From a virus, in the IMG/VR virus record IMGVR_UViG_3300035130_000101, positions 6,304-70,303 of that record: a DNA stretch of 64,000 nucleotides, one strand, 5' to 3'. The notes beneath the pieces are model-generated. The model saw nothing but the letters and a program-made list of their open reading frames with translations, did not search any database and was not told the origin of the DNA. Of this stretch, positions 903-64,000 are shown in pieces (the stretch's first letter is position 1; each line of letters opens with the position of its first letter). Position numbers and translations under genes: made by a program.

Positions 903-1355
903 TCATCGCCATACAGAAACATCTGCGGTTGGGTATATTTCACAGGCTTTTAGGTATCTTCTTACAAATTCTACAAGCCCATCATAATCACCCCAACCGT
1001 TAGATGGATTGAATTGCTTGAACCGTTCGGGGTCGCCCTCAAGTAATGCTAACCCTTTCCGAAGTGGCTCAATCAATTCGCCAGCCTTACTGATATTGAT
1101 TTCATCAGGTCGCCATAAATATTGGTATATACCGGCTTCTGAGGCCATTGTGGTAAGATTATGTGTGATATTTGCGGTATAAACTTCTTTGCTATCATCG
1201 TCGCCAATTTGGGTTATAGCCGGTTCGCACCCTGGGAATTTTTCATTCCATTCATCACGTGAAATCTCTTTTATTGAACCATTTTCACGGATAAAAATAC
1301 CCGACCCAGTCTCGTTCTTTTTATCAGGAAATATTAAGGAAACATCAAGACTCAT
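903..1355 (-). CDS. hypothetical protein
   Basis: 150-aa ORF in a co-oriented operon. No motif recognised. Confidence 0.45.
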   Translation of the reverse strand: MSLDVSLIFPDKKNETGSGIFIRENGSIKEISRDEWNEKFPGCEPAITQIGDDDSKEVYTANITHNLTTMASEAGIYQYLWRPDEINISKAGELIEPLRKGLALLEGDPERFKQFNPSNGWGDYDGLVEFVRRYLKACEIYPTADVSVWR

Positions 1356-6191: not shown

Positions 6192-6370
6192 TGCCGTTTC
6201 CTCATTGCCAGCCATACCTCATCGGCCGTCGGCTTGCGCACTTTTTCCGCCGCCAAGTAGGTTTGCAGAATCCAGACGATATGCGCCGTCTTGCTACGCT
6301 GTGCTTTTTGGGCGCTGGCGGTTAGTTGGGTATTGAGTTTATCGGGTAAGCGTAGGGTGAAGCGGGTCAT
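6188..6370 (-). CDS. ribbon-helix-helix (CopG/Arc-like) DNA-binding protein
   Basis: 60 aa. MTRFTLRLPDKLNTQLTASAQKAQRSKTAHIVWILQTYL fits a beta-strand plus two helices. Confidence 0.5.
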   Translation of the reverse strand: MTRFTLRLPDKLNTQLTASAQKAQRSKTAHIVWILQTYLAAEKVRKPTADEVWLAMRKRQ

Positions 6371-7043: not shown

Positions 7044-7073
7044 ATTATACACCACCTTGACACCATTTGTCAA
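7044..7073 (-). promoter_or_regulatory. sigma70-type promoter
   Basis: Minus strand TTGACA-18 nt-TATAAT, upstream of 6681-6971. Confidence 0.65.
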
Positions 7074-7076
7074 TAA

Positions 7077-7111
7077 GAAAAGCCGCCGGCCCCGATACAC
7101 CGACGGCTTTT
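7077..7111. terminator. imperfect hairpin flanked by A- and T-runs
   Basis: aaaAGCCGcCGG...CCGaCGGCTtttt, downstream of the integrase-like gene. Confidence 0.45.
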
Positions 7112-7184
7112 CCTTCGATCTTTGCAGCGCCCGGCGCGCCTGAACGTGGACGTTGCTAATAGGAAGTGAACCGATTCCATTGTA

Positions 7185-7841
7185 TCACAGGTGGTTACGT
7201 GTGTCAACACATCTCATATACCTGGCAATTGTGCCGGACTTGAGACCGGTTAGCTCGCGCACTACTGCCGGTCCGTCATCCTCTAATCGGTGAACAATGC
7301 CAGACTGATAGATCGTCATCGCTGTTACCGGCTTAGTGATTTCCTGTTCCCTAGCCACCCTTTTGATATGGTTAGTCAGCGTAGACACGGACGTATGTCC
7401 ACCTCTGGACACTGACTTTTTAACAATATCTCCCGGTCTGGTCAAGTTATGATAAGCCTCTCTGGCTAAAATCTGATAAAGTAATGGTAAGCCAGTTATA
7501 ACCGCCTTTACCTGCCCCCGGCTTATAGTCTCTACCAGTTTTGTTTTGTGCAGAGTTGATACCATCCGAACTTCGACGGGCTTTCCAATGTCATCAAAAA
7601 ACATACTAATCGCCCGCTTCGCTTGGTTGGTAGTAGATCGGGAGTATTCGCCGGGCCGGACCATCCAGGCCAAATACTCGTCAATATGCCATTGCTCAAG
7701 CTCGGATAATTTGATCGGAGCGTGAAATTTGGCAAGCTCGATTATCCAGCGGGAATAGAGCCGGACGGTATTTTTGGACAGGCCCGCAAAGGCGCTGTCT
7801 AATTTTTGTTGTAACTCATTTGATGGTTTCATATTTGACAT
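7185..7841 (-). CDS. short tyrosine-recombinase/integrase-like protein (catalytic motifs partly degenerate)
   Basis: 218 aa. N-terminal SAM-like core-binding pattern (VRLYSRWIIELAKF...WHIDEYLAWM...NQAKRAISMFF). NLTRPGDIV resembles box I Arg and IARYM a candidate Tyr, but the HxxR region is not recognisable. Confidence 0.45.
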   Translation of the reverse strand: MSNMKPSNELQQKLDSAFAGLSKNTVRLYSRWIIELAKFHAPIKLSELEQWHIDEYLAWMVRPGEYSRSTTNQAKRAISMFFDDIGKPVEVRMVSTLHKTKLVETISRGQVKAVITGLPLLYQILAREAYHNLTRPGDIVKKSVSRGGHTSVSTLTNHIKRVAREQEITKPVTAMTIYQSGIVHRLEDDGPAVVRELTGLKSGTIARYMRCVDTRNHL

Positions 7842-11997: not shown

Positions 11998-13190
11998 AAC
12001 GTATCTTCACTATCGAACAGGACAAAGAAGTTGCCGAGCTATACCAGCAGGGAATGTCATCTATCAAGCTCGCCGAGCAATATGGCGTTGACAAGTCAAC
12101 GGTCTTGGGGGCGTTGAAACGGCAAGGGATAAGGCGGAGAACTAATAGAGCCTTTACCAGAGGTGAAGAGCAACAGATAGCTCACATATATCAAGCTGGA
12201 CACAAGATAACGGACATTGCAAAAGCGTATGGCTATGATTTCACTACTATTAAAAATGCCCTCAAGAGACAAGGAGTTAAGCAAGGGGATGACCGGTTTA
12301 CTTTTTCGGCCACACAAGAAAAGGAGATACTTGAAGAGTACAAATCTGGAAACAAGATGGCCGATATTGCAAAAAAATATCAGGCATCCCCAGGAACAAT
12401 ATCTAAAGCGATAACCAATCAGGGTGGCAAGGTCAGAGACGGACGCATCTTTACTGATAGCGAAGAAGTAATGATAGGCCACATTTACGAATCCGGCTTT
12501 AGCCCTCAGCAAATTTCAGTGGCGTATGGCGTATCACGTAGCGCAATTATAAATACAATAGATAGACGTGGGATTGATAAGCGCCCTAACAGAAAAAACT
12601 TTTTTGACGAAAAGGCTTTTGATAGTCTTGACAGTGAAGCCCCCCTATATTGGCTTGGCTTTTGTTATGCCGATGCCAATGTAACTAACTATGAACTCAG
12701 GATTGGACTTGCTATCAAGGATATAGATCACTTGCAGTTACTGGGAGATTTTATGCAAAGTGATAAGACGGTAAAAAAATATCGAAATAATACAGCTTGT
12801 CAATTGAGCTTTGCTAGCGTGTATCTTACAAAAAGGTTGCACTCATTAGGATTGATAGCAGGTAGAGGTGAATTTGAAAAGCTCGTGCCGCATATTCCCG
12901 ATAATCTGGCTCATCATTTTATTCGCGGATATCTTGACGGTGACGGCTGCATTACTGAAAGTAATTATCTTATCAGATTTCTAGGGCAAGTTGATATACT
13001 GGAATGGATTAGAAATATCCTTCATAGTAATGCAGGTGCTAGCAATTCCGTTTCTATTAAAAAACGGAGGGGCATCTACAGTATTGGATGGGGAGGCCGA
13101 TATCAAGGTCCTAAAATAATAGACTATCTTTATAAAAATGCGACTATATATCTCGATAGAAAAAGAAAAGTAGCAAGAAGTTGGAAATAA
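11994..13190 (+). CDS. LAGLIDADG homing endonuclease with four N-terminal tandem HTH repeats
   Basis: Four roughly 55-aa repeats (FTxEQ..I..Y..G.s...IA..YG.s..tI..al.RqG). C-terminal LGFCYADANV and IRGYLDGDGCI are two LAGLIDADG motifs. Confidence 0.7.
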   Translation: MKRIFTIEQDKEVAELYQQGMSSIKLAEQYGVDKSTVLGALKRQGIRRRTNRAFTRGEEQQIAHIYQAGHKITDIAKAYGYDFTTIKNALKRQGVKQGDDRFTFSATQEKEILEEYKSGNKMADIAKKYQASPGTISKAITNQGGKVRDGRIFTDSEEVMIGHIYESGFSPQQISVAYGVSRSAIINTIDRRGIDKRPNRKNFFDEKAFDSLDSEAPLYWLGFCYADANVTNYELRIGLAIKDIDHLQLLGDFMQSDKTVKKYRNNTACQLSFASVYLTKRLHSLGLIAGRGEFEKLVPHIPDNLAHHFIRGYLDGDGCITESNYLIRFLGQVDILEWIRNILHSNAGASNSVSIKKRRGIYSIGWGGRYQGPKIIDYLYKNATIYLDRKRKVARSWK

Positions 13191-13195
13191 AAAAT

Positions 13196-13220
13196 AGGAC
13201 TGAGGACAATCCTCAGTCCT
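13196..13220. terminator. bidirectional rho-independent terminator between convergent genes
   Basis: AGGACTGAGGA-caa-TCCTCAGTCCT (11-bp stem) with an upstream A-run. Confidence 0.75.
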
Positions 13221-13242
13221 ATTAACATAACAACTTTACATA

Positions 13243-14778
13243 TTATAACCAAACGGCATATTTGCTGCCGGTGCTTCTCAGTGAAATTCCGCCGTCCACC
13301 CAGTGGGCGCTCTCGGCGTCGGCTTCTCTCAGGTGACTGATCGGCGCATACTTCACGTTTTGGAGCCTTCCAGCCAATTGGGGCGTCCGCAACACCACCC
13401 GCTGTTCCGTCTTGCACAGCCCCTTGAGACAGAAGTTGATATCGTTCCAGGCCCAGGCGAACACGCCCCGGTCGGTCCAGAACCGCTGCACGTTGCGAAT
13501 GAGATTGAACTCGGTCATTGCCTGCCGATAATCTTTGTGCTGGCGGTAAGTGACGGGGAAGTTGCCGGTCGTCCGCAGCGGAACCATATAGATGTCGCTG
13601 GCGTACTCGCCCGGATCGAGACTGGCCGGCGTGTTGGTGTTGTTCTGTTCGTAGATGCCGGTGTCCTCAATGACCTTGTACGTCCGGCCATTGACGGCAA
13701 TCTGGCCCATCACCCGCATATTGTCCCGGTCCTGAATGTTCGAGCGACCGTCCAGCGTCACTCGCGCATTGCTGGCCGCAGCGATGGCAATGGCTACCTG
13801 GTCGGTATTGTAGGCAATCGGCCATACCCTGGACATCTCATACCACAGTTGAGGCCGCATCGCAAAGACCCACTCAGCCGGTAGCATCCCGGTATCAGCC
13901 GCCAACGTGTAGATGAAATACTCCATCATCGATATCTGGTTGACCAGGGCCGTGGCATTGGAAGCCACATCAGCATAGGCAAAGTTGTCGATATAGCTAT
14001 CCAACGACGGACAGGCAGTGTTTGTGTCGGCGTCAACCTGGCCCGTGGCAATCTGGTTGTCAAGGCCGGGGAACTCTTTATAACCACCGCCGATGTTGTT
14101 GTTGGCCGGGCTGCCTTGCCACATATGCGTGGTAAGAAGCCGCTCCAGCCGCACCCCGACGCTGACCATCTGGGACATCGTTACCAGGTTCAAAATCTGA
14201 TTGGGATTCAGGCCGCCGGGCATCAACCCGGCTTGTGTTCCCATATTCAGATTCATCCCGTGTAGTACCAGGTCCGAGAAGTCACCCCGGTTGATACGTA
14301 GACCAAGTTCGTCCATTTCGATAGTTTCAGTCGAACGGGCCACCCGCCCGAATTGCGCCGTCAGGTTACAGGCTTTCAAGTAGCCCGTGGGCGCATCCTC
14401 GCAGGGCGTCGCCGGTTCGTTGCCGATGTCATCCGAAAAGCCGGACAAAGCCCCAAAGCGCGGATCTTCGTCATTGTTCGGCAGAAGCGGCAAAACGGAT
14501 GAAATGCCGTGTGGCTGGACGTGGGTCGAGATGATGTCACGTTCCAAACCAAGAGTGGAGAAGGTGCCGCGCAAGCCGTGAAGCTTTTGAGCAGTCATCG
14601 TGGTGGCCGGCGCTTTGGTAATCAGGTCGTTGACCATTTCCATTGCCTTGACCTGAAATTCCTTGTCGCTGTTAGTCTGGCCGATCTGGTTGGCCGCCAG
14701 CGCCGCCAGAAGCGCCTGATTTTGCTGAATCAAGCCCATCAGTTGTTCAGAACTCATTGTGTCACTCATTGCCGCCAT
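13243..14778 (-). CDS. putative major capsid protein
   Basis: 511 aa, last gene of the head operon, directly after the protease/scaffold gene. Assigned by synteny only. Confidence 0.5.
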   Translation of the reverse strand: MAAMSDTMSSEQLMGLIQQNQALLAALAANQIGQTNSDKEFQVKAMEMVNDLITKAPATTMTAQKLHGLRGTFSTLGLERDIISTHVQPHGISSVLPLLPNNDEDPRFGALSGFSDDIGNEPATPCEDAPTGYLKACNLTAQFGRVARSTETIEMDELGLRINRGDFSDLVLHGMNLNMGTQAGLMPGGLNPNQILNLVTMSQMVSVGVRLERLLTTHMWQGSPANNNIGGGYKEFPGLDNQIATGQVDADTNTACPSLDSYIDNFAYADVASNATALVNQISMMEYFIYTLAADTGMLPAEWVFAMRPQLWYEMSRVWPIAYNTDQVAIAIAAASNARVTLDGRSNIQDRDNMRVMGQIAVNGRTYKVIEDTGIYEQNNTNTPASLDPGEYASDIYMVPLRTTGNFPVTYRQHKDYRQAMTEFNLIRNVQRFWTDRGVFAWAWNDINFCLKGLCKTEQRVVLRTPQLAGRLQNVKYAPISHLREADAESAHWVDGGISLRSTGSKYAVWL

Positions 14779-16481
14779 CCTGCCTGAGTCCAGCCCAGTT
14801 CATTCCACCATAACCCCGTCGAGCCGTCCTGCTTGGCCTTGTTCTGTTCTGGCCCTGGCACTTCGCCTGTCACCTGATTTTGCTTGGTGAAAAGCTCGCT
14901 CTTGACAAACGAGGCCAGCGACGCTTCCGGGATGGAAGCCGCCTGTTTTTCAAGCCGCTCTTTGTCCGTTTTCTCCAACTCCTTGAGCCGGCTATCAATG
15001 ACCTGGACGCTCTCGCCAATGGCCCTGATAGAGGTGGTCAAAGCCCGGACTGCCTCGACCATATCCGCCGAAGGCTGCTCCGCTTGAGCCGGGGCAGGTT
15101 GCTCTTTGGCCTGTTCTACCGGTGGCGTCTTTTCTTTGCTCTCCGTTCCGGCGTCGCTGGCTTGCTTGGCCCGCTGCGCCAGCTCATCTTCCATTTGTTT
15201 TACCCGCTCCTCGCCAAAGGCTGCAATGAACTCCTCTCGCTTGTGAGCCGGTATCTCTTTTACATCGTTCATACCGTTACTCTCCTTACTGATTAAATGA
15301 AACGCTAAACTGTTAGCTGCCGCCTTTGTCGGCAGGAACGTAATTTCCCTACTACGCCGGCGAGTGATAATCGACTTGTCCTTATCATCTTCCCGGCGCA
15401 CCTCTTTGCGAGGCATACCGTGTGACATCCCCCGCCAGTTTGCTTTGATGACACCTTCAGCCGCCCACCCCTTATCTTTGTCGAACGTGCCGCCGGCGAT
15501 GCAAAAGCCGGACTTTTCGTCATAGGCGTGATAGTGGGTTTTCCCGACCGGATAGGGATAATGCCACAGCCAGACTTCCGGCATCGGCCACTCGCCGCTA
15601 TTTACCGCCTGGTCGAACTCTTTGTGAGCGTCGGAGGAGATGATCTCAGGCGGGTTGTCGTTGTCACGGTAATTGTTGGTATATGCGCCAAGCCAGTGGT
15701 ATTGCCCGTCCACCTCTTTCCAGATGTGAGAGAAGGTATTTTTTTCTAACTGCGGTTGAGATTTCTCTTTCAGGCCGAATATCTCTTTGGTTTTGGCAAT
15801 GGCCCGGTCGATAATCGTTTCCTGCTCGACTTCCTTTTGGGTGTTTTCCAAGATGCGCCGGGCTTTGGCTTGCAACGAGGCTTTCTTGTCAGCGGAGATG
15901 CCCTTCATCTGAGGGATACGGGCGATTGCATTGCGTATATGGGGCAGATCAACTTTGCCGGAAGCGTCTTTGTAGGGCAAGTGGCGACAGGTGCGGGGCT
16001 TGGTTTTGTTTTCGCTGTCCTTTTCGCCGCAGCCGGATTCAACGTAGAGGAAGCTGGAGTCAGGTAAGTTGTTGACGAAAGCGGTTGACCAGACGGCTTT
16101 CAAAACGTCGTCACGATCATCAACCTCTTTATCGTCGCTTTCATCTATCTCTTTCAAATCACCACGAGCCACACCCATTCGGTTAATAAACTCCCCGGCC
16201 AGATTAGCCAGAGCGCCGGGCTTGTCCTCTACCATATCGGACATCATAATATTTGAGGCCAGGTCCCTGAAATACTCGGTCGCCTTGCGTACATCGGCTT
16301 CCATCTCCCGGCTTTCCATATAGGCGTCAAGCTCTTCAAACGAAGTAATACCGGGCGGAATCCACATCGGTTCATCATACATCTTAGTAACGTCGGCCTC
16401 TTTGGTTTCCTGGCCGGCGTCTTTGTTTTCGGTATCTTCGGCTTTGTCTGCGGTTTTTGGGTCGTCTGCTTTGTTGCCCAT
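14766..16481 (-). CDS. putative prohead protease / scaffold fusion protein
   Basis: 571 aa. Acidic N-terminus. The central SDAH...GMSHGM...REITFLPTKAAANSLA resembles HK97-type (U35/S78) prohead protease blocks. C-terminus is coiled-coil and Lys/Glu-rich. Confidence 0.5.
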   Translation of the reverse strand: MGNKADDPKTADKAEDTENKDAGQETKEADVTKMYDEPMWIPPGITSFEELDAYMESREMEADVRKATEYFRDLASNIMMSDMVEDKPGALANLAGEFINRMGVARGDLKEIDESDDKEVDDRDDVLKAVWSTAFVNNLPDSSFLYVESGCGEKDSENKTKPRTCRHLPYKDASGKVDLPHIRNAIARIPQMKGISADKKASLQAKARRILENTQKEVEQETIIDRAIAKTKEIFGLKEKSQPQLEKNTFSHIWKEVDGQYHWLGAYTNNYRDNDNPPEIISSDAHKEFDQAVNSGEWPMPEVWLWHYPYPVGKTHYHAYDEKSGFCIAGGTFDKDKGWAAEGVIKANWRGMSHGMPRKEVRREDDKDKSIITRRRSREITFLPTKAAANSLAFHLISKESNGMNDVKEIPAHKREEFIAAFGEERVKQMEDELAQRAKQASDAGTESKEKTPPVEQAKEQPAPAQAEQPSADMVEAVRALTTSIRAIGESVQVIDSRLKELEKTDKERLEKQAASIPEASLASFVKSELFTKQNQVTGEVPGPEQNKAKQDGSTGLWWNELGWTQAGWRQ

Positions 16482-16492
16482 TGCACCACCTT

Positions 16493-16530
16493 AAAAACAA
16501 AAAGGGCTTAAGTCGGATTGACTTAAGCCC
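16493..16530 (-). terminator. strong rho-independent terminator immediately upstream of the head-gene RBS
   Basis: Minus strand GGGCTTAAGTC-aatcc-GACTTAAGCCC followed by TTTTTGTTTTT, then AAGGTGG and the ATG at 16481. Confidence 0.75.
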
Positions 16531-16763
16531 CAGGTAAGAGAGCGGTTTATTGAGCGGGCCTCTCGCCCGCTTGGAGTATCATCGGTCTGACTCTGGCAGC
16601 CTGCCCGGCCCAGGCTATCGGGCAACTTATGGACGCATTTTCAAAAAAATATATCCTTGTCTAATCGGGGTTTTGATTATGGCTCAATCCCCCGCTAAAG
16701 CCGGGTGAGTAGCCAAGTGTCTAGGATAGCACCCCAGGGACGTTAGCTTGTCCACTCTCCACA

Positions 16764-16792
16764 ATTATATCAAAATAACTGTGCTATGTCAA
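16764..16792 (-). promoter_or_regulatory. sigma70-type promoter (consensus)
   Basis: Minus strand TTGACA-17 nt-TATAAT. The -35 overlaps the stop of 16789-17133. Confidence 0.7.
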
Positions 16793-17133
16793 GCAATAAT
16801 AACCGCCTGCTCATTGCGTATCACCCACCCAACCGGAACCCCCGCCTTGACCACGAATATTCGCTCCAACGTGCCGGTAGAATTACGCATACTCTCCGGT
16901 ACAATCGAGTGCATCAAATCATCCCAACCATTGCCGATCTCAGAGATTGACAGCAGCGACACGTCAAAGTTGCGAGGCTCAAGTGGTACTCTGGTTGGCT
17001 TGCACCAGCCGATAGGCAAGCCCGATGACAAAAAGACCTTAATGGATATTAGCGCCACGCCTTCGCAGCCGCCGTCATCCCGGTTGTTGGCGACGGATTG
17101 TAAGCGCCACTTGAGTTTGGTCCAGTTATCAGC
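16789..17133 (-). CDS. hypothetical protein
   Basis: Met at 17133 (MADNWTKLKW...) overlaps the upstream stop. The ORF track gives a longer form to 17175. Confidence 0.4.
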   Translation of the reverse strand, partial: ADNWTKLKWRLQSVANNRDDGGCEGVALISIKVFLSSGLPIGWCKPTRVPLEPRNFDVSLLSISEIGNGWDDLMHSIVPESMRNSTGTLERIFVVKAGVPVGWVIRNEQAVIIA

Positions 17134-17383
17134 CATATTTTTCTGCAAACTCCGAATCGGGATATAACTCGACAATAGTCACCTTTAGCCAAGCCAGGGC
17201 CTCTATGATGGTGTCAAATCCTTGCGCCTTCCTAATACCGTTCGTAGTATCGCCAATTATGGCGTTGATACCACTGTCCCAAAACCAGCTTATGGTTATG
17301 TTGATCTCGCTGTCGTAAATGTCTTGGAGGATATTCGAGACATCAACTGTAACGGTTGCCTCTTTAGCCATACAGTTTATCAA
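17129..17383 (-). CDS. hypothetical protein
   Basis: 84-aa ORF, tightly packed in the operon. Confidence 0.45.
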   Translation of the reverse strand: MINCMAKEATVTVDVSNILQDIYDSEINITISWFWDSGINAIIGDTTNGIRKAQGFDTIIEALAWLKVTIVELYPDSEFAEKYG

Positions 17384-17852
17384 GCCCCCTGTTCTTTGCC
17401 TTAATCATCGCATTGGTAAACGGTCGCCGCCGCCGCTTCTGTATCAACTCAGTCCATCCTCTGGCCTTGATACCGGGTCGCGGTCGCCGCTTATTGACGA
17501 ATAGCATCCGCCCCCGGCCCCGGCCAGACTTGAGCTTGCCGGGCGTAGTCTTGCTCTTCCAGTCTTGTGACATCGTGGCGTAGCGGACGCAAGTACCTTC
17601 ATCAAGCCATTTGAATTTGTTTAGCGCATCTTCGGAGCCGTTTGGGCCAGTCAGAACAGAAGCATCTTTTGTGGTCAACCCGATTAACGTTTCCGCCTTT
17701 GGCTTGTCACCCTTCCAGGTTGCCCAGGTTTGCTCAAGTAACTTTTCGTTCTCTTTTCCCTCGGCGCGCAAAGCATTAAGAAGCTCTAAGCGAACCTCTT
17801 TAAGTCTCATTGGCTTGGCTTTGATCGCCTTGACCTGAAATACTTCTGCCAT
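17364..17852 (-). CDS. hypothetical (virion-associated?) basic protein
   Basis: 162 aa with an Arg/Lys-rich C-terminus. Lies in the head region. Confidence 0.4.
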   Translation of the reverse strand: MAEVFQVKAIKAKPMRLKEVRLELLNALRAEGKENEKLLEQTWATWKGDKPKAETLIGLTTKDASVLTGPNGSEDALNKFKWLDEGTCVRYATMSQDWKSKTTPGKLKSGRGRGRMLFVNKRRPRPGIKARGWTELIQKRRRRPFTNAMIKAKNRGLDKLYG

Positions 17853-17867
17853 TATGCATCCTAACTA

Positions 17868-17896
17868 TTGACAATCAATAGTGAATAGAGCATAAT
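17868..17896 (+). promoter_or_regulatory. sigma70-type promoter
   Basis: TTGACA-17 nt-CATAAT. Shares the 17-mer CTATTGACAATCAATAG with the promoter at 30847-30875. Confidence 0.65.
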
Positions 17897-17925
17897 AAGG
17901 TATACTGATTAAGGAGTGAATAACA

Positions 17926-18186
17926 ATGGAAATCAACGTCAAATTTCAATGGTGTAACAATCGCCCGGTTTTTGAAATTCCTCTAATTGACACCGAAACC
18001 GGCCCAGAGCCTCGCTTGCCCAAGCATTGCGGCGGAACCTTCCTTTACAATCCCGACAAAACCCGCTGTGCCGTTATTGCCACCAAAGGGACGGCCACCT
18101 ATTTGATGCAGCGCAAGTATGCCAGATTTCTTGGCGTAGCAAAAGCCACCCCGGACGGCATCGGGCATTACGAATTGCCGCTCTGA
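17926..18186 (+). CDS. hypothetical protein (lone plus-strand gene inside the head module)
   Basis: 86 aa. AAGGAG SD and its own promoter at 17868-17896. Confidence 0.5.
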   Translation: MEINVKFQWCNNRPVFEIPLIDTETGPEPRLPKHCGGTFLYNPDKTRCAVIATKGTATYLMQRKYARFLGVAKATPDGIGHYELPL

Positions 18187-62763: not shown

Positions 62764-63451
62764 AGCCCTTTACCTCAAACAATTCTGATTGCTGTAATTT
62801 GCCATTTTGTGGTAAGTCATCCAATGTGACTGGCGAAATGCGTAGATGATGACAGTGGACATTCAACGCCGCGTATGCTTCAATGTTCAGTCTTTTTAGT
62901 CGCAAAAAGAATGAGTGGTCCTCGCTATATGGAAAAATCTTGTCGAATGGTTGCTCGTTTAATTCGGTTGCTATCCGGTCAAATACTCTACGACGTACAA
63001 ATAGACATCCTCCACCGGCAGAACCAATTTGCACAACTTTGACGTTATCCGGCCAAACGGCCATCGGTTGCAATCCGGGTGCATCCTCTGGGCCAACCCA
63101 TTGAAACAAAACCGGTACGTGTGGCGGCTGTTTCATTTGATACAAGCCACTTACTACATCCAGGTCGTGTTTGTTGGCAATCATCACCATTCGGGCTACG
63201 ATGTCAGGCTCAAAAACGTGGTCTGTGTCTAGCTGCACCAACCAATCTCCAACGAAGCGTGACACTAGGGCGTTTCTGGCCGGGGCGTGATCTGAAAAAG
63301 CAGACCGCTCCAGGTGAATGTGTACGCCCTCGTCGCACCATTCGGCATTAAAAGCTGCCATCTGGCCCCAAGACCAACAGAATTGCTCCAGTACTGCGGG
63401 CAGGCCACCTAAATATGCAACTGTACCGATTGCTTTAGAGCCGATAATCAT
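62756..63451 (-). CDS. GT2-like glycosyltransferase
   Basis: LVQLDTDHVF (DxD) and GGGCLFVRRRVF. Confidence 0.5.
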   Translation of the reverse strand: MIIGSKAIGTVAYLGGLPAVLEQFCWSWGQMAAFNAEWCDEGVHIHLERSAFSDHAPARNALVSRFVGDWLVQLDTDHVFEPDIVARMVMIANKHDLDVVSGLYQMKQPPHVPVLFQWVGPEDAPGLQPMAVWPDNVKVVQIGSAGGGCLFVRRRVFDRIATELNEQPFDKIFPYSEDHSFFLRLKRLNIEAYAALNVHCHHLRISPVTLDDLPQNGKLQQSELFEVKGYG

Positions 63452-64000
63452 TTATCCACCCATTCCATTGTTCGGCCACTCGCCACCAGTCACAACGCTG
63501 CCGAGCTTCCGTCATCATCTCTTGCCTGATTGCCTTCTGCGCGCTAGGGTTTTCAACCAAGCGACAAATGGCATCGACATACCGTGCTCGCACCAGAGCA
63601 TCTCCAGACGGACTACCCTCGATAAAAACGCCGTGCTTTACGTTGTCCAGCGTAGCCCAATATGGTCGAGTAATCGGAATTGCACCTAATACCTGTGCCT
63701 CCATACAGGATATGCACGAAGTCTCGGTAAAGTCAGTCGGATAGACCCACATTCCTGACTGCATAAATTCTTTGTATAGCTGCTTTTGCCCGATGCGCCC
63801 GTGCCAAATAACACCATCCATTTGTTTGGCCCGTTCCATCGTATCGAATGATGGCTGCCACGGTCGCCGGTCGCCGTGACCGTCTGAAATCATCTTAATG
63901 TTGTCAATACCGTAGAAGATGTGCAGCTCTAAATCTTCTACTTGTTCCCTGGCTCGTTCAAAGATGGTCAATAACGCCGCCAATCCCCGATCTGGTGAAC
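63435..64000 (-). CDS. GT1 (GT-B)-like glycosyltransferase, C-terminal part (probably continues beyond the window)
   Basis: PTDFTETSCISCMEAQVLGAIPI resembles the E(x7)E region of GT-B enzymes. An N-terminal domain is absent from the window. Confidence 0.45.
   Translation of the reverse strand, partial: SPDRGLAALLTIFERAREQVEDLELHIFYGIDNIKMISDGHGDRRPWQPSFDTMERAKQMDGVIWHGRIGQKQLYKEFMQSGMWVYPTDFTETSCISCMEAQVLGAIPITRPYWATLDNVKHGVFIEGSPSGDALVRARYVDAICRLVENPSAQKAIRQEMMTEARQRCDWWRVAEQWNGWINDYRL

Follow-up and report, generated by a model that had tools for sequence, protein, structure and literature searches.

Results

Gene organization at the locus

The locus belongs to an uncultivated phage of about 70 kb, whose record in IMG/VR (IMGVR_UViG_3300035130_000101) is complete at 70,303 bp and carries direct terminal repeats. 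The window, which is the whole stretch of DNA analyzed here, comprises 64,000 nt (positions 6,304 to 70,303 of the record) and covers most of it. All positions given below are those of the window, the contigs and loci fetched for comparison are labeled with L-numbers (L001, L087 and so on), and L223 is a locus of the same genome that lies outside the window. A glycosyltransferase gene with a GT4 N-terminal part and a GT1 C-terminal part is seemingly split by the record ends (L223:3–635 plus window 63435–63983, minus strand), an arrangement that terminal repeats or permutation of the assembly could explain.

On the minus strand, the gene order runs from the large terminase gene (TerL; phrog_38, E = 1e-31) through a 626-aa portal-sized gene, several small genes, w162 and w115 to a promoter, a leader and a terminator. 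Next come a 571-aa gene (14766–16481) and, as the last gene of this two-gene unit, a 511-aa gene (13243–14778), behind which the unit ends in a strong terminator (13184–13225; −21.8 kcal/mol, with the T-run starting at 13191). Upstream, w162 and the zinc-ribbon gene w114 are separated by 315 nt (17852–18168), in which lie an 11/12 promoter on the opposite strand (17868–17896, plus strand) and an 86-aa ORF (17926–18186, plus strand).

Judging from gene order only, downstream of TerL and the portal-sized gene, the two genes are presumed to function in head assembly, with the 571-aa product as prohead protease/scaffold and the 511-aa product as major capsid protein. The earlier note had made the same assignment; homology gives no confirmation, as neither protein could be annotated by Pfam, PHROG or PDB-sequence profiles or by tblastn against GenBank phages. 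Both have hundreds of metagenomic relatives, and none of the 415 homologues of the 571-aa protein is annotated. Motifs in the proteins, which we take to recall prohead proteases, serve as a lead only. Blastn against annotated phage DNA gave no match to the stretch, and a scan of genome contigs matched only the N-terminal domain of the 571-aa protein and indicated no host. This domain (residues ~94–260, window ~16100–15700; LPDSSFLYIE...HFPYKD...LRNAIARIPQ) occurs alone in many viral contigs, in MAGs of several phyla and in Thermoanaerobacterium phage THSA-485A, and is a separate widespread module.

A consensus promoter and an intrinsic terminator ahead of the two genes

The promoter upstream of the two genes is of the sigma-70 type and lies at 16764–16792 on the minus strand, with a predicted transcription start near 16757. 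The perfect TTGACA-17-TATAAT read there by the earlier note was borne out, matching the consensus at 12/12 positions and carrying a TG extended −10 element in addition. In the 70.3-kb genome, 10 such perfect promoters were found against ~0.025 expected, a number that excludes chance. The perfect promoters are thus evidently real signals, and the phage would use the host sigma-70-type polymerase. Further 12/12 promoters are located, for example, at window 7835, 35602, 35574, 33397, 33352, 37762, 52359 and 53626, and two of the ten stand in tandem ahead of replication genes. Among the relatives, the promoter at the locus is kept in L001, L087 and L204 and appears as TTGCTTGACA... in L002, L003 and L084.

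After a leader of ~265 nt without a credible ORF, the transcript would reach an intrinsic terminator at 16493–16531 (minus strand; −19.8 kcal/mol), which consists of a stem of 12 pairs (16531–16503), six of them G–C, a loop of 5 and the 11-nt T-rich tail TTTTTGTTTTT, extending to 16493. A distance of 4 nt separates the ribosome-binding site AAGGTGG (16486–16492, minus strand) from the ATG at 16481. The succession of GC-rich terminator, U-run, AAGGTGG and ATG described previously is therefore in place, with the stem counted here as 12 bp. As the interval from the terminator to the start codon is too short to hold a further promoter, the polymerase must run through the terminator or terminators if the two genes are to be expressed. 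The proposal that head-gene expression needs terminator readthrough is thus upheld, also by the promoter-then-terminator order, which many divergent relatives keep, frequently with terminators in tandem. We regard this predicted requirement for the 571-aa and 511-aa genes as robust and well supported.

Elsewhere in the genome, terminators precede promoters, as at the five places 7804/7835, 52240/52359, 53583/53626, 43103/43076 and 35864/35574, the reverse of the order seen at this locus. A second promoter-then-terminator unit was observed at 7073–7207 (minus strand), where an 11/12 promoter with TG (7207–7179) overlaps the stop codon of an integron-integrase-like gene. It is followed by ~95 nt of RNA, a terminator of −19.8 kcal/mol (T-run at 7079) and a new 12/12 promoter at 7073, and the unit looks like a self-contained small-RNA gene.

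Conservation of the layout in relatives

Relatives were fetched with a promoter pattern as well as by homology to w115 and to the 571-aa protein, and a uniform script counted, in 30 non-redundant relatives, hairpins with a T-run at most 90 nt upstream of the homologous gene. As a result, a terminator was found before the homologous gene in 17 of the 30 relatives, or in 20 after correction of three start picks, compared with 15 of 217 ORF starts elsewhere in these loci (p = 4e-10 and 4e-13, respectively), so that the layout is not a product of chance. In 15 of the 30, a promoter of at least 11/12 was also present upstream. The architecture is conserved even though the sequence is not.

In seven close lineages (L002, L003, L085, L088, L089, L126 and L184), two terminators stand in tandem 20–100 nt after the promoter, behind leaders of 20–100 nt that are unrelated in sequence. 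L195 groups with L002 and likewise has the promoter, an unrelated leader and tandem terminators. The terminator starts ~20–35 nt after the transcription start in L002, L085, L184, L126 and L195. Distant IMG/VR relatives with 30–45% protein identity (L004, L006, L009, L011–L016, L018–L020 and L025) carry an 11–12/12 promoter and/or a hairpin with a T-run directly before the ribosome site. In L007/L008 and L036, the promoter is present and the terminator is absent.

A conserved mini-hairpin at the foot of the terminators

At the foot of the terminator, GCUCU (16543–16539) pairs with GGGGC (16531–16527) around the loop CUUACCU, to form a mini-hairpin (16527–16543, minus strand) that contains the invariant box ACCTGGG at 16535–16529. 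The 3' strand of this mini-hairpin is the foot of the terminator 5' arm, and because the strand is shared, the mini-hairpin and the terminator are mutually exclusive. A pyrimidine tract followed by AC(C/T)TGGG precedes every one of the 16 distinct terminators of the close subgroup that were aligned (17 instances were extracted). The GGG of the box opens the terminator stem, and the rest of the stem varies by lineage yet stays paired. When the 16 sequences were folded, the mini-hairpin alone gave −2.8 to −6.4 kcal/mol and the terminators −13 to −22 kcal/mol. L084 has one such box-terminator, and the start chosen by the gene caller in this contig is wrong.

RNAalifold recovered a 5-bp helix of the pyrimidine tract with the GGGN foot, and not the variable terminator arms. 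In the 16 sequences, columns 6 and 20 pair as CG (7), GC (6), UA (1) and GU or UG (2), with C–G in the first terminators, G–C in the second terminators, U–A in L085 and G–U in L126; this covariation in a helix of 4–5 bp comprises few independent events (first versus second terminator paralogues, L085 and L126) among related sequences. Paired cells make up 93.8% of the mini-helix versus 79% in shuffles (0 of 500 reach the observed value, with kinship uncorrected), while slid partners give at most 66%. The terminators of distant relatives are without the box, and a mechanism that depends on it would therefore be specific to the subgroup. A search for the complement of the box as a target returned no convincing site.

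A second box-terminator, GCCTTTAACCTGGGC..., lies in the same genome outside the window (L223 ~955–1012, minus strand; −22 kcal/mol), in a glycosyltransferase cluster where a 93-aa ORF and a DUF1360 gene flank it. A genome-wide scan detected no promoter of at least 11/12 nearby, and the stretch read upstream is coding. That the element occurs at two operons, and that no promoter was detected for one of these, is in keeping with a factor that would act in trans at the terminator, and not with one loaded at a promoter. The sequence that follows the second box-terminator, AATTGAGATTTT-ATG, resembles that after the second terminator of L002-type phages. Screening of ~200 unrelated loci by regular expression and folding yielded no box-terminator, with a screen that missed some known copies, including that of the window itself. 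In L087 (876–1004), an extra ~110-nt insert separates the terminator from the ribosome site and holds a third ACCTGGG box with no terminator after it.

An exchangeable cassette in the leader

The leader had been described in the earlier note as structured and ORF-free. The latter is nearly true: two ORFs of at least 40 aa overlap this stretch, one of 44 aa on the minus strand and one of 52 aa on the plus strand, and neither is credible. In the closest relative, L001, a 1-nt indel shifts the frame of the 52-aa ORF, while the 44-aa ORF extends through the terminator and is replaced in L087, and both were rejected as genes on these grounds. As for the structure, the description holds for the whole transcript, which folds with z = −3.84 against shuffles, and not for the 183-nt middle alone (z = −1.33; 19 of 200 shuffles do as well), which indicates that the fold signal comes mainly from the 3' hairpins. 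The hairpins named previously are present, among them AGCCTG/CAGGCT, which still pairs in L001 through a C-to-U change (G–U), and AGCGGGC/GCCCGCT at 16571–16553. The latter, designated hairpin H (AGCGGGC-GAGAG-GCCCGCT; 16553–16571, minus strand), lacks a T-run, is kept in L001 and L087, and forms the first element of a conserved 3' module. Rfam searches with the window and 18 related loci, at gathering and E-value thresholds, gave no relevant match, the leader included, and none reached the gathering threshold.

The remainder of the leader is a cassette of ~180 nt (16578–16757, minus strand) that is 97–98% identical in L001. Over its full length, the leader differs from that of L001 at 11 of 265 positions (95.8% identity), whereas in the flanking genes 64 of 236 third codon positions are changed (~27%; p = 2e-13 for the contrast). 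The conservation of the leader equals that of the first and second codon positions, and this similarity indicates constraint or recent exchange. In L087 and L204, whose w115 is 91–93% identical to that of the window, an unrelated sequence of ~190 nt takes the place of the cassette behind the same promoter. The 3' module, composed of hairpin H and the terminator, is identical in L087, and the L204 contig ends before it. Since the inserts of L087 and L204 are alike in their second half only, the leader is a mosaic. The ~180-nt middle is thus, to all appearances, an exchangeable cargo cassette that lies outside the switch.

The leader cassettes of different lineages show no mutual similarity, and only two copies of the cassette of the window are known; scans of viral contigs with the terminator module and with a 20-mer of the cassette gave no match. 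When the cassette was scanned for targets against 111 phage translation starts, no outlier was found, and the best real energy fell inside the shuffle range.

Candidate factors

The orphan gene w115 (16789–17136, minus strand; 115 aa) is located directly upstream of the promoter, with its TGA stop codon inside the −35 hexamer and its start set by homologues of 104–115 aa. Its confident AF2 model (pLDDT 83, pTM 0.77) consists of an N-terminal helix followed mostly by beta-strands, and has no significant fold match in the PDB, including the Q structures, or in BFVD. The protein is not basic, and its sequence contains two GxPxGW motifs (GLPIGW and GVPVGW). Full-length w115 homologues co-occur with the promoter-terminator module in the close subgroup, and we consider w115 a candidate regulator by position only. 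The product of the other upstream gene, w162 (17364–17852, minus strand), is conserved, with a very basic C-terminus, and is also found in relatives without the terminator; its AF2 model (pLDDT 86) has no PDB match. A cut-off of E < 0.1 was applied to the PDB fold searches with both models.

Furthermore, the complete genome was searched for known regulator families. It has no match to the Q families PF06530 (Phage_antitermQ) and PF03589 (Antiterm), to NusG or sigma-70 region 2, or to CAT_RBD (PF03123), ANTAR (PF03861) or CSD. An anti-termination factor could be host-encoded.

Discussion

From these elements we infer efficient termination, regulated readthrough and a control point in the mini-hairpin. 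A constitutive-looking promoter would fire into a terminator that lies 10 nt ahead of the ribosome site belonging to the two-gene unit. By default, transcription would stop at 16493–16503 and leave an abundant RNA of ~265 nt, and the 571-aa and 511-aa genes would be made only when the terminator is overridden, most likely at the terminator itself. In the course of transcription, the pyrimidine tract and the GGGN foot would be the first to pair, as a mini-hairpin of 4–5 bp with a loop ending in ACCU. A factor that holds this mini-hairpin would block the G–C base of the terminator next to the U-tract, so that the polymerase would read on, while the cassette would be cargo, released in the ~265-nt RNA as long as the gate is shut. 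Such regulated anti-termination, in which a terminator gate is opened at the terminator by a stabilized competing mini-hairpin, has in our judgment about an even chance of being correct. A fuller version, in which a phage protein of new fold, with w115 as the positional candidate, would read the ACCU hairpin and open at least two operons, and the promoter-terminator slot would exchange small-RNA cassettes, is tentative and on balance doubtful.

The same elements could instead make up a constitutive attenuator or insulator, whose leaky terminator would stop the upstream operon and fix the ratio of the short RNA to the mRNA with no dedicated factor. Such an arrangement would agree with the absence of an encoded known anti-terminator and with L007/L008 and L036, which manage without the terminator. 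However, a 12-bp stem with an 11-nt T-rich tail does not suggest leakiness, and seven lineages place terminators in tandem before genes that are presumably needed in the highest copy number. The promoter, as strong as promoters can look, would suit this reading by offsetting the loss, and the hairpin would also stabilize the 5' end of the mRNA. Against it, the genome insulates elsewhere by the simple order of terminator and then promoter, and the conserved, covarying mini-hairpin would be left unexplained. We therefore consider constitutive attenuation unlikely, and the proposed compensation by promoter strength and mRNA stabilization equally so.

Another possibility is control of the lambda-Q type, in which a phage protein, with w115 in the role of Q, would be loaded onto the polymerase at or near the promoter and resist the terminator or terminators downstream. 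The layout recalls such a system, with a promoter and then a terminator directly ahead of presumed late structural genes, and with a small gene that ends inside the −35 hexamer, the position of Q relative to PR'. On the other hand, neither Q family is matched in the complete genome, and the w115 model resembles nothing in the PDB, where Q structures are included; the Q-like antiterminator suggested in the earlier note is thus not supported as a family member. The co-occurrence of w115 homologues with the promoter-terminator module in the close subgroup would also suit this type of control, whereas, with regard to a Q-binding element and a −10-like pause element, the promoter spacer and the first 30 transcribed nucleotides hold nothing conserved across nine relatives, although this is not decisive, since Q sites are phage-specific. 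Tandem terminators require a processive mechanism, which would speak for a Q-like factor, but the box accompanies every terminator, the second one of a tandem pair as well as the first, and the second box-terminator of the genome has no consensus promoter found upstream. As these last two observations place the conserved element at the terminators and not at the promoter, terminator-local control akin to that of the RAT systems is favored over the lambda-Q type, which we regard as quite unlikely.

The ~265-nt terminated RNA, composed of the cassette and the 3' module, might also function as a stand-alone sRNA that acts in trans on host or phage targets. StxS of the Stx phages, a regulatory sRNA that arises when transcription from PR' stops early (PMC7547250), provides a precedent. 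The RNA would have its own consensus promoter and terminator, and its cassette is far better conserved between the window and L001 than the flanking synonymous sites; however, the cassette is known from two copies only and shows nothing remarkable in its folding (z = −1.33), and neither Rfam nor the scan of the phage's own translation starts provided a match or an outlier target. The swapping of cassettes among near-identical phages resembles cargo under diversifying exchange, and the unit at 7207–7079 is another self-contained succession of promoter, ~95 nt and terminator, but relatives with ~20 nt from promoter to terminator would yield the hairpin alone. Moreover, the downstream genes would still need readthrough, so that an sRNA would complement the gate and not replace it. 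A primary function as an sRNA thus seems improbable to us, and the terminated RNA is possibly a by-product of the system, or its cargo, and not its core.

Finally, the cis-acting anti-terminator RNA in the manner of HK022 put that the earlier note had raised, which would reside in the leader and modify the polymerase transcribing it, is scarcely credible despite the long leader of the window, since this leader is not conserved, is replaced by unrelated sequence in the near-identical phages L087 and L204 and is missing from L002, L085, L184, L126 and L195, where as little as ~20 nt separates start and terminator, and since, with a constitutive cis element, the conserved terminator would serve no purpose.

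In lambdoid phages, the gating of late genes by a terminator is textbook knowledge. Here, the same gate logic would operate in an unrelated and wholly unannotated phage family with more than 400 protein relatives, without a known anti-terminator and with a conserved RNA element of a distinct kind at every terminator. If the mini-hairpin is the control point, it would belong to a new RNA-protein anti-termination pair and offer a handle on gene timing in phages that cannot so far be cultivated. In addition, with promoter and terminator fixed, the swappable cassette between them would offer phage small RNAs a natural slot for expression.

Comparison with known systems

In lambdoid late control, transcription from the PR' promoter meets the tR' terminator, yielding the short 6S RNA, and the anti-terminator Q allows readthrough. 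The present locus shares with it a promoter that looks always on, a close intrinsic terminator before presumed late genes, a small gene immediately preceding the promoter and, as the predicted default product, a short terminated RNA. In contrast, no Q-family protein is found here by profile or fold, the conserved element is at each terminator and not at the promoter, the gate would control just two genes midway through the morphogenesis region instead of the whole late operon, and the second box-terminator stands without a consensus promoter found upstream. The put RNAs of HK022 are cis-acting antiterminator RNAs, and the locus is like them in having leader RNA between promoter and terminator, but there is no conserved leader RNA here and some relatives are almost leaderless. 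As with StxS, the by-product RNA of the gate could act in trans, and the leader is conserved beyond synonymous sites; unlike in the StxS case, there is no relation by sequence or Rfam, no target was found among the phage starts, and the cassette is swapped between close relatives.

Anti-termination at RAT sites by CAT-domain proteins is represented by BglG, SacY and LicT, and that by ANTAR proteins by AmiR, NasR and EutV. The mini-hairpin described here is similar in that a small hairpin shares a strand with the terminator 5' arm, occurs in one copy per terminator and would prevent termination when stabilized. It differs from them in its single stem of 4–5 bp with a 7–8-nt loop ending in ACCU, compared with the ~29-nt RAT or the dual hexaloop ANTAR target, in the phage having no CAT_RBD or ANTAR domain, and in preceding phage structural genes rather than catabolic operons. 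The system is thus close to lambda PR'-tR' in layout and to RAT/ANTAR in its likely control point, and by the available tests is a member of neither. Its layout is not unique in itself; what is new is the box with its mini-hairpin, the second site and the exchange of cassettes.
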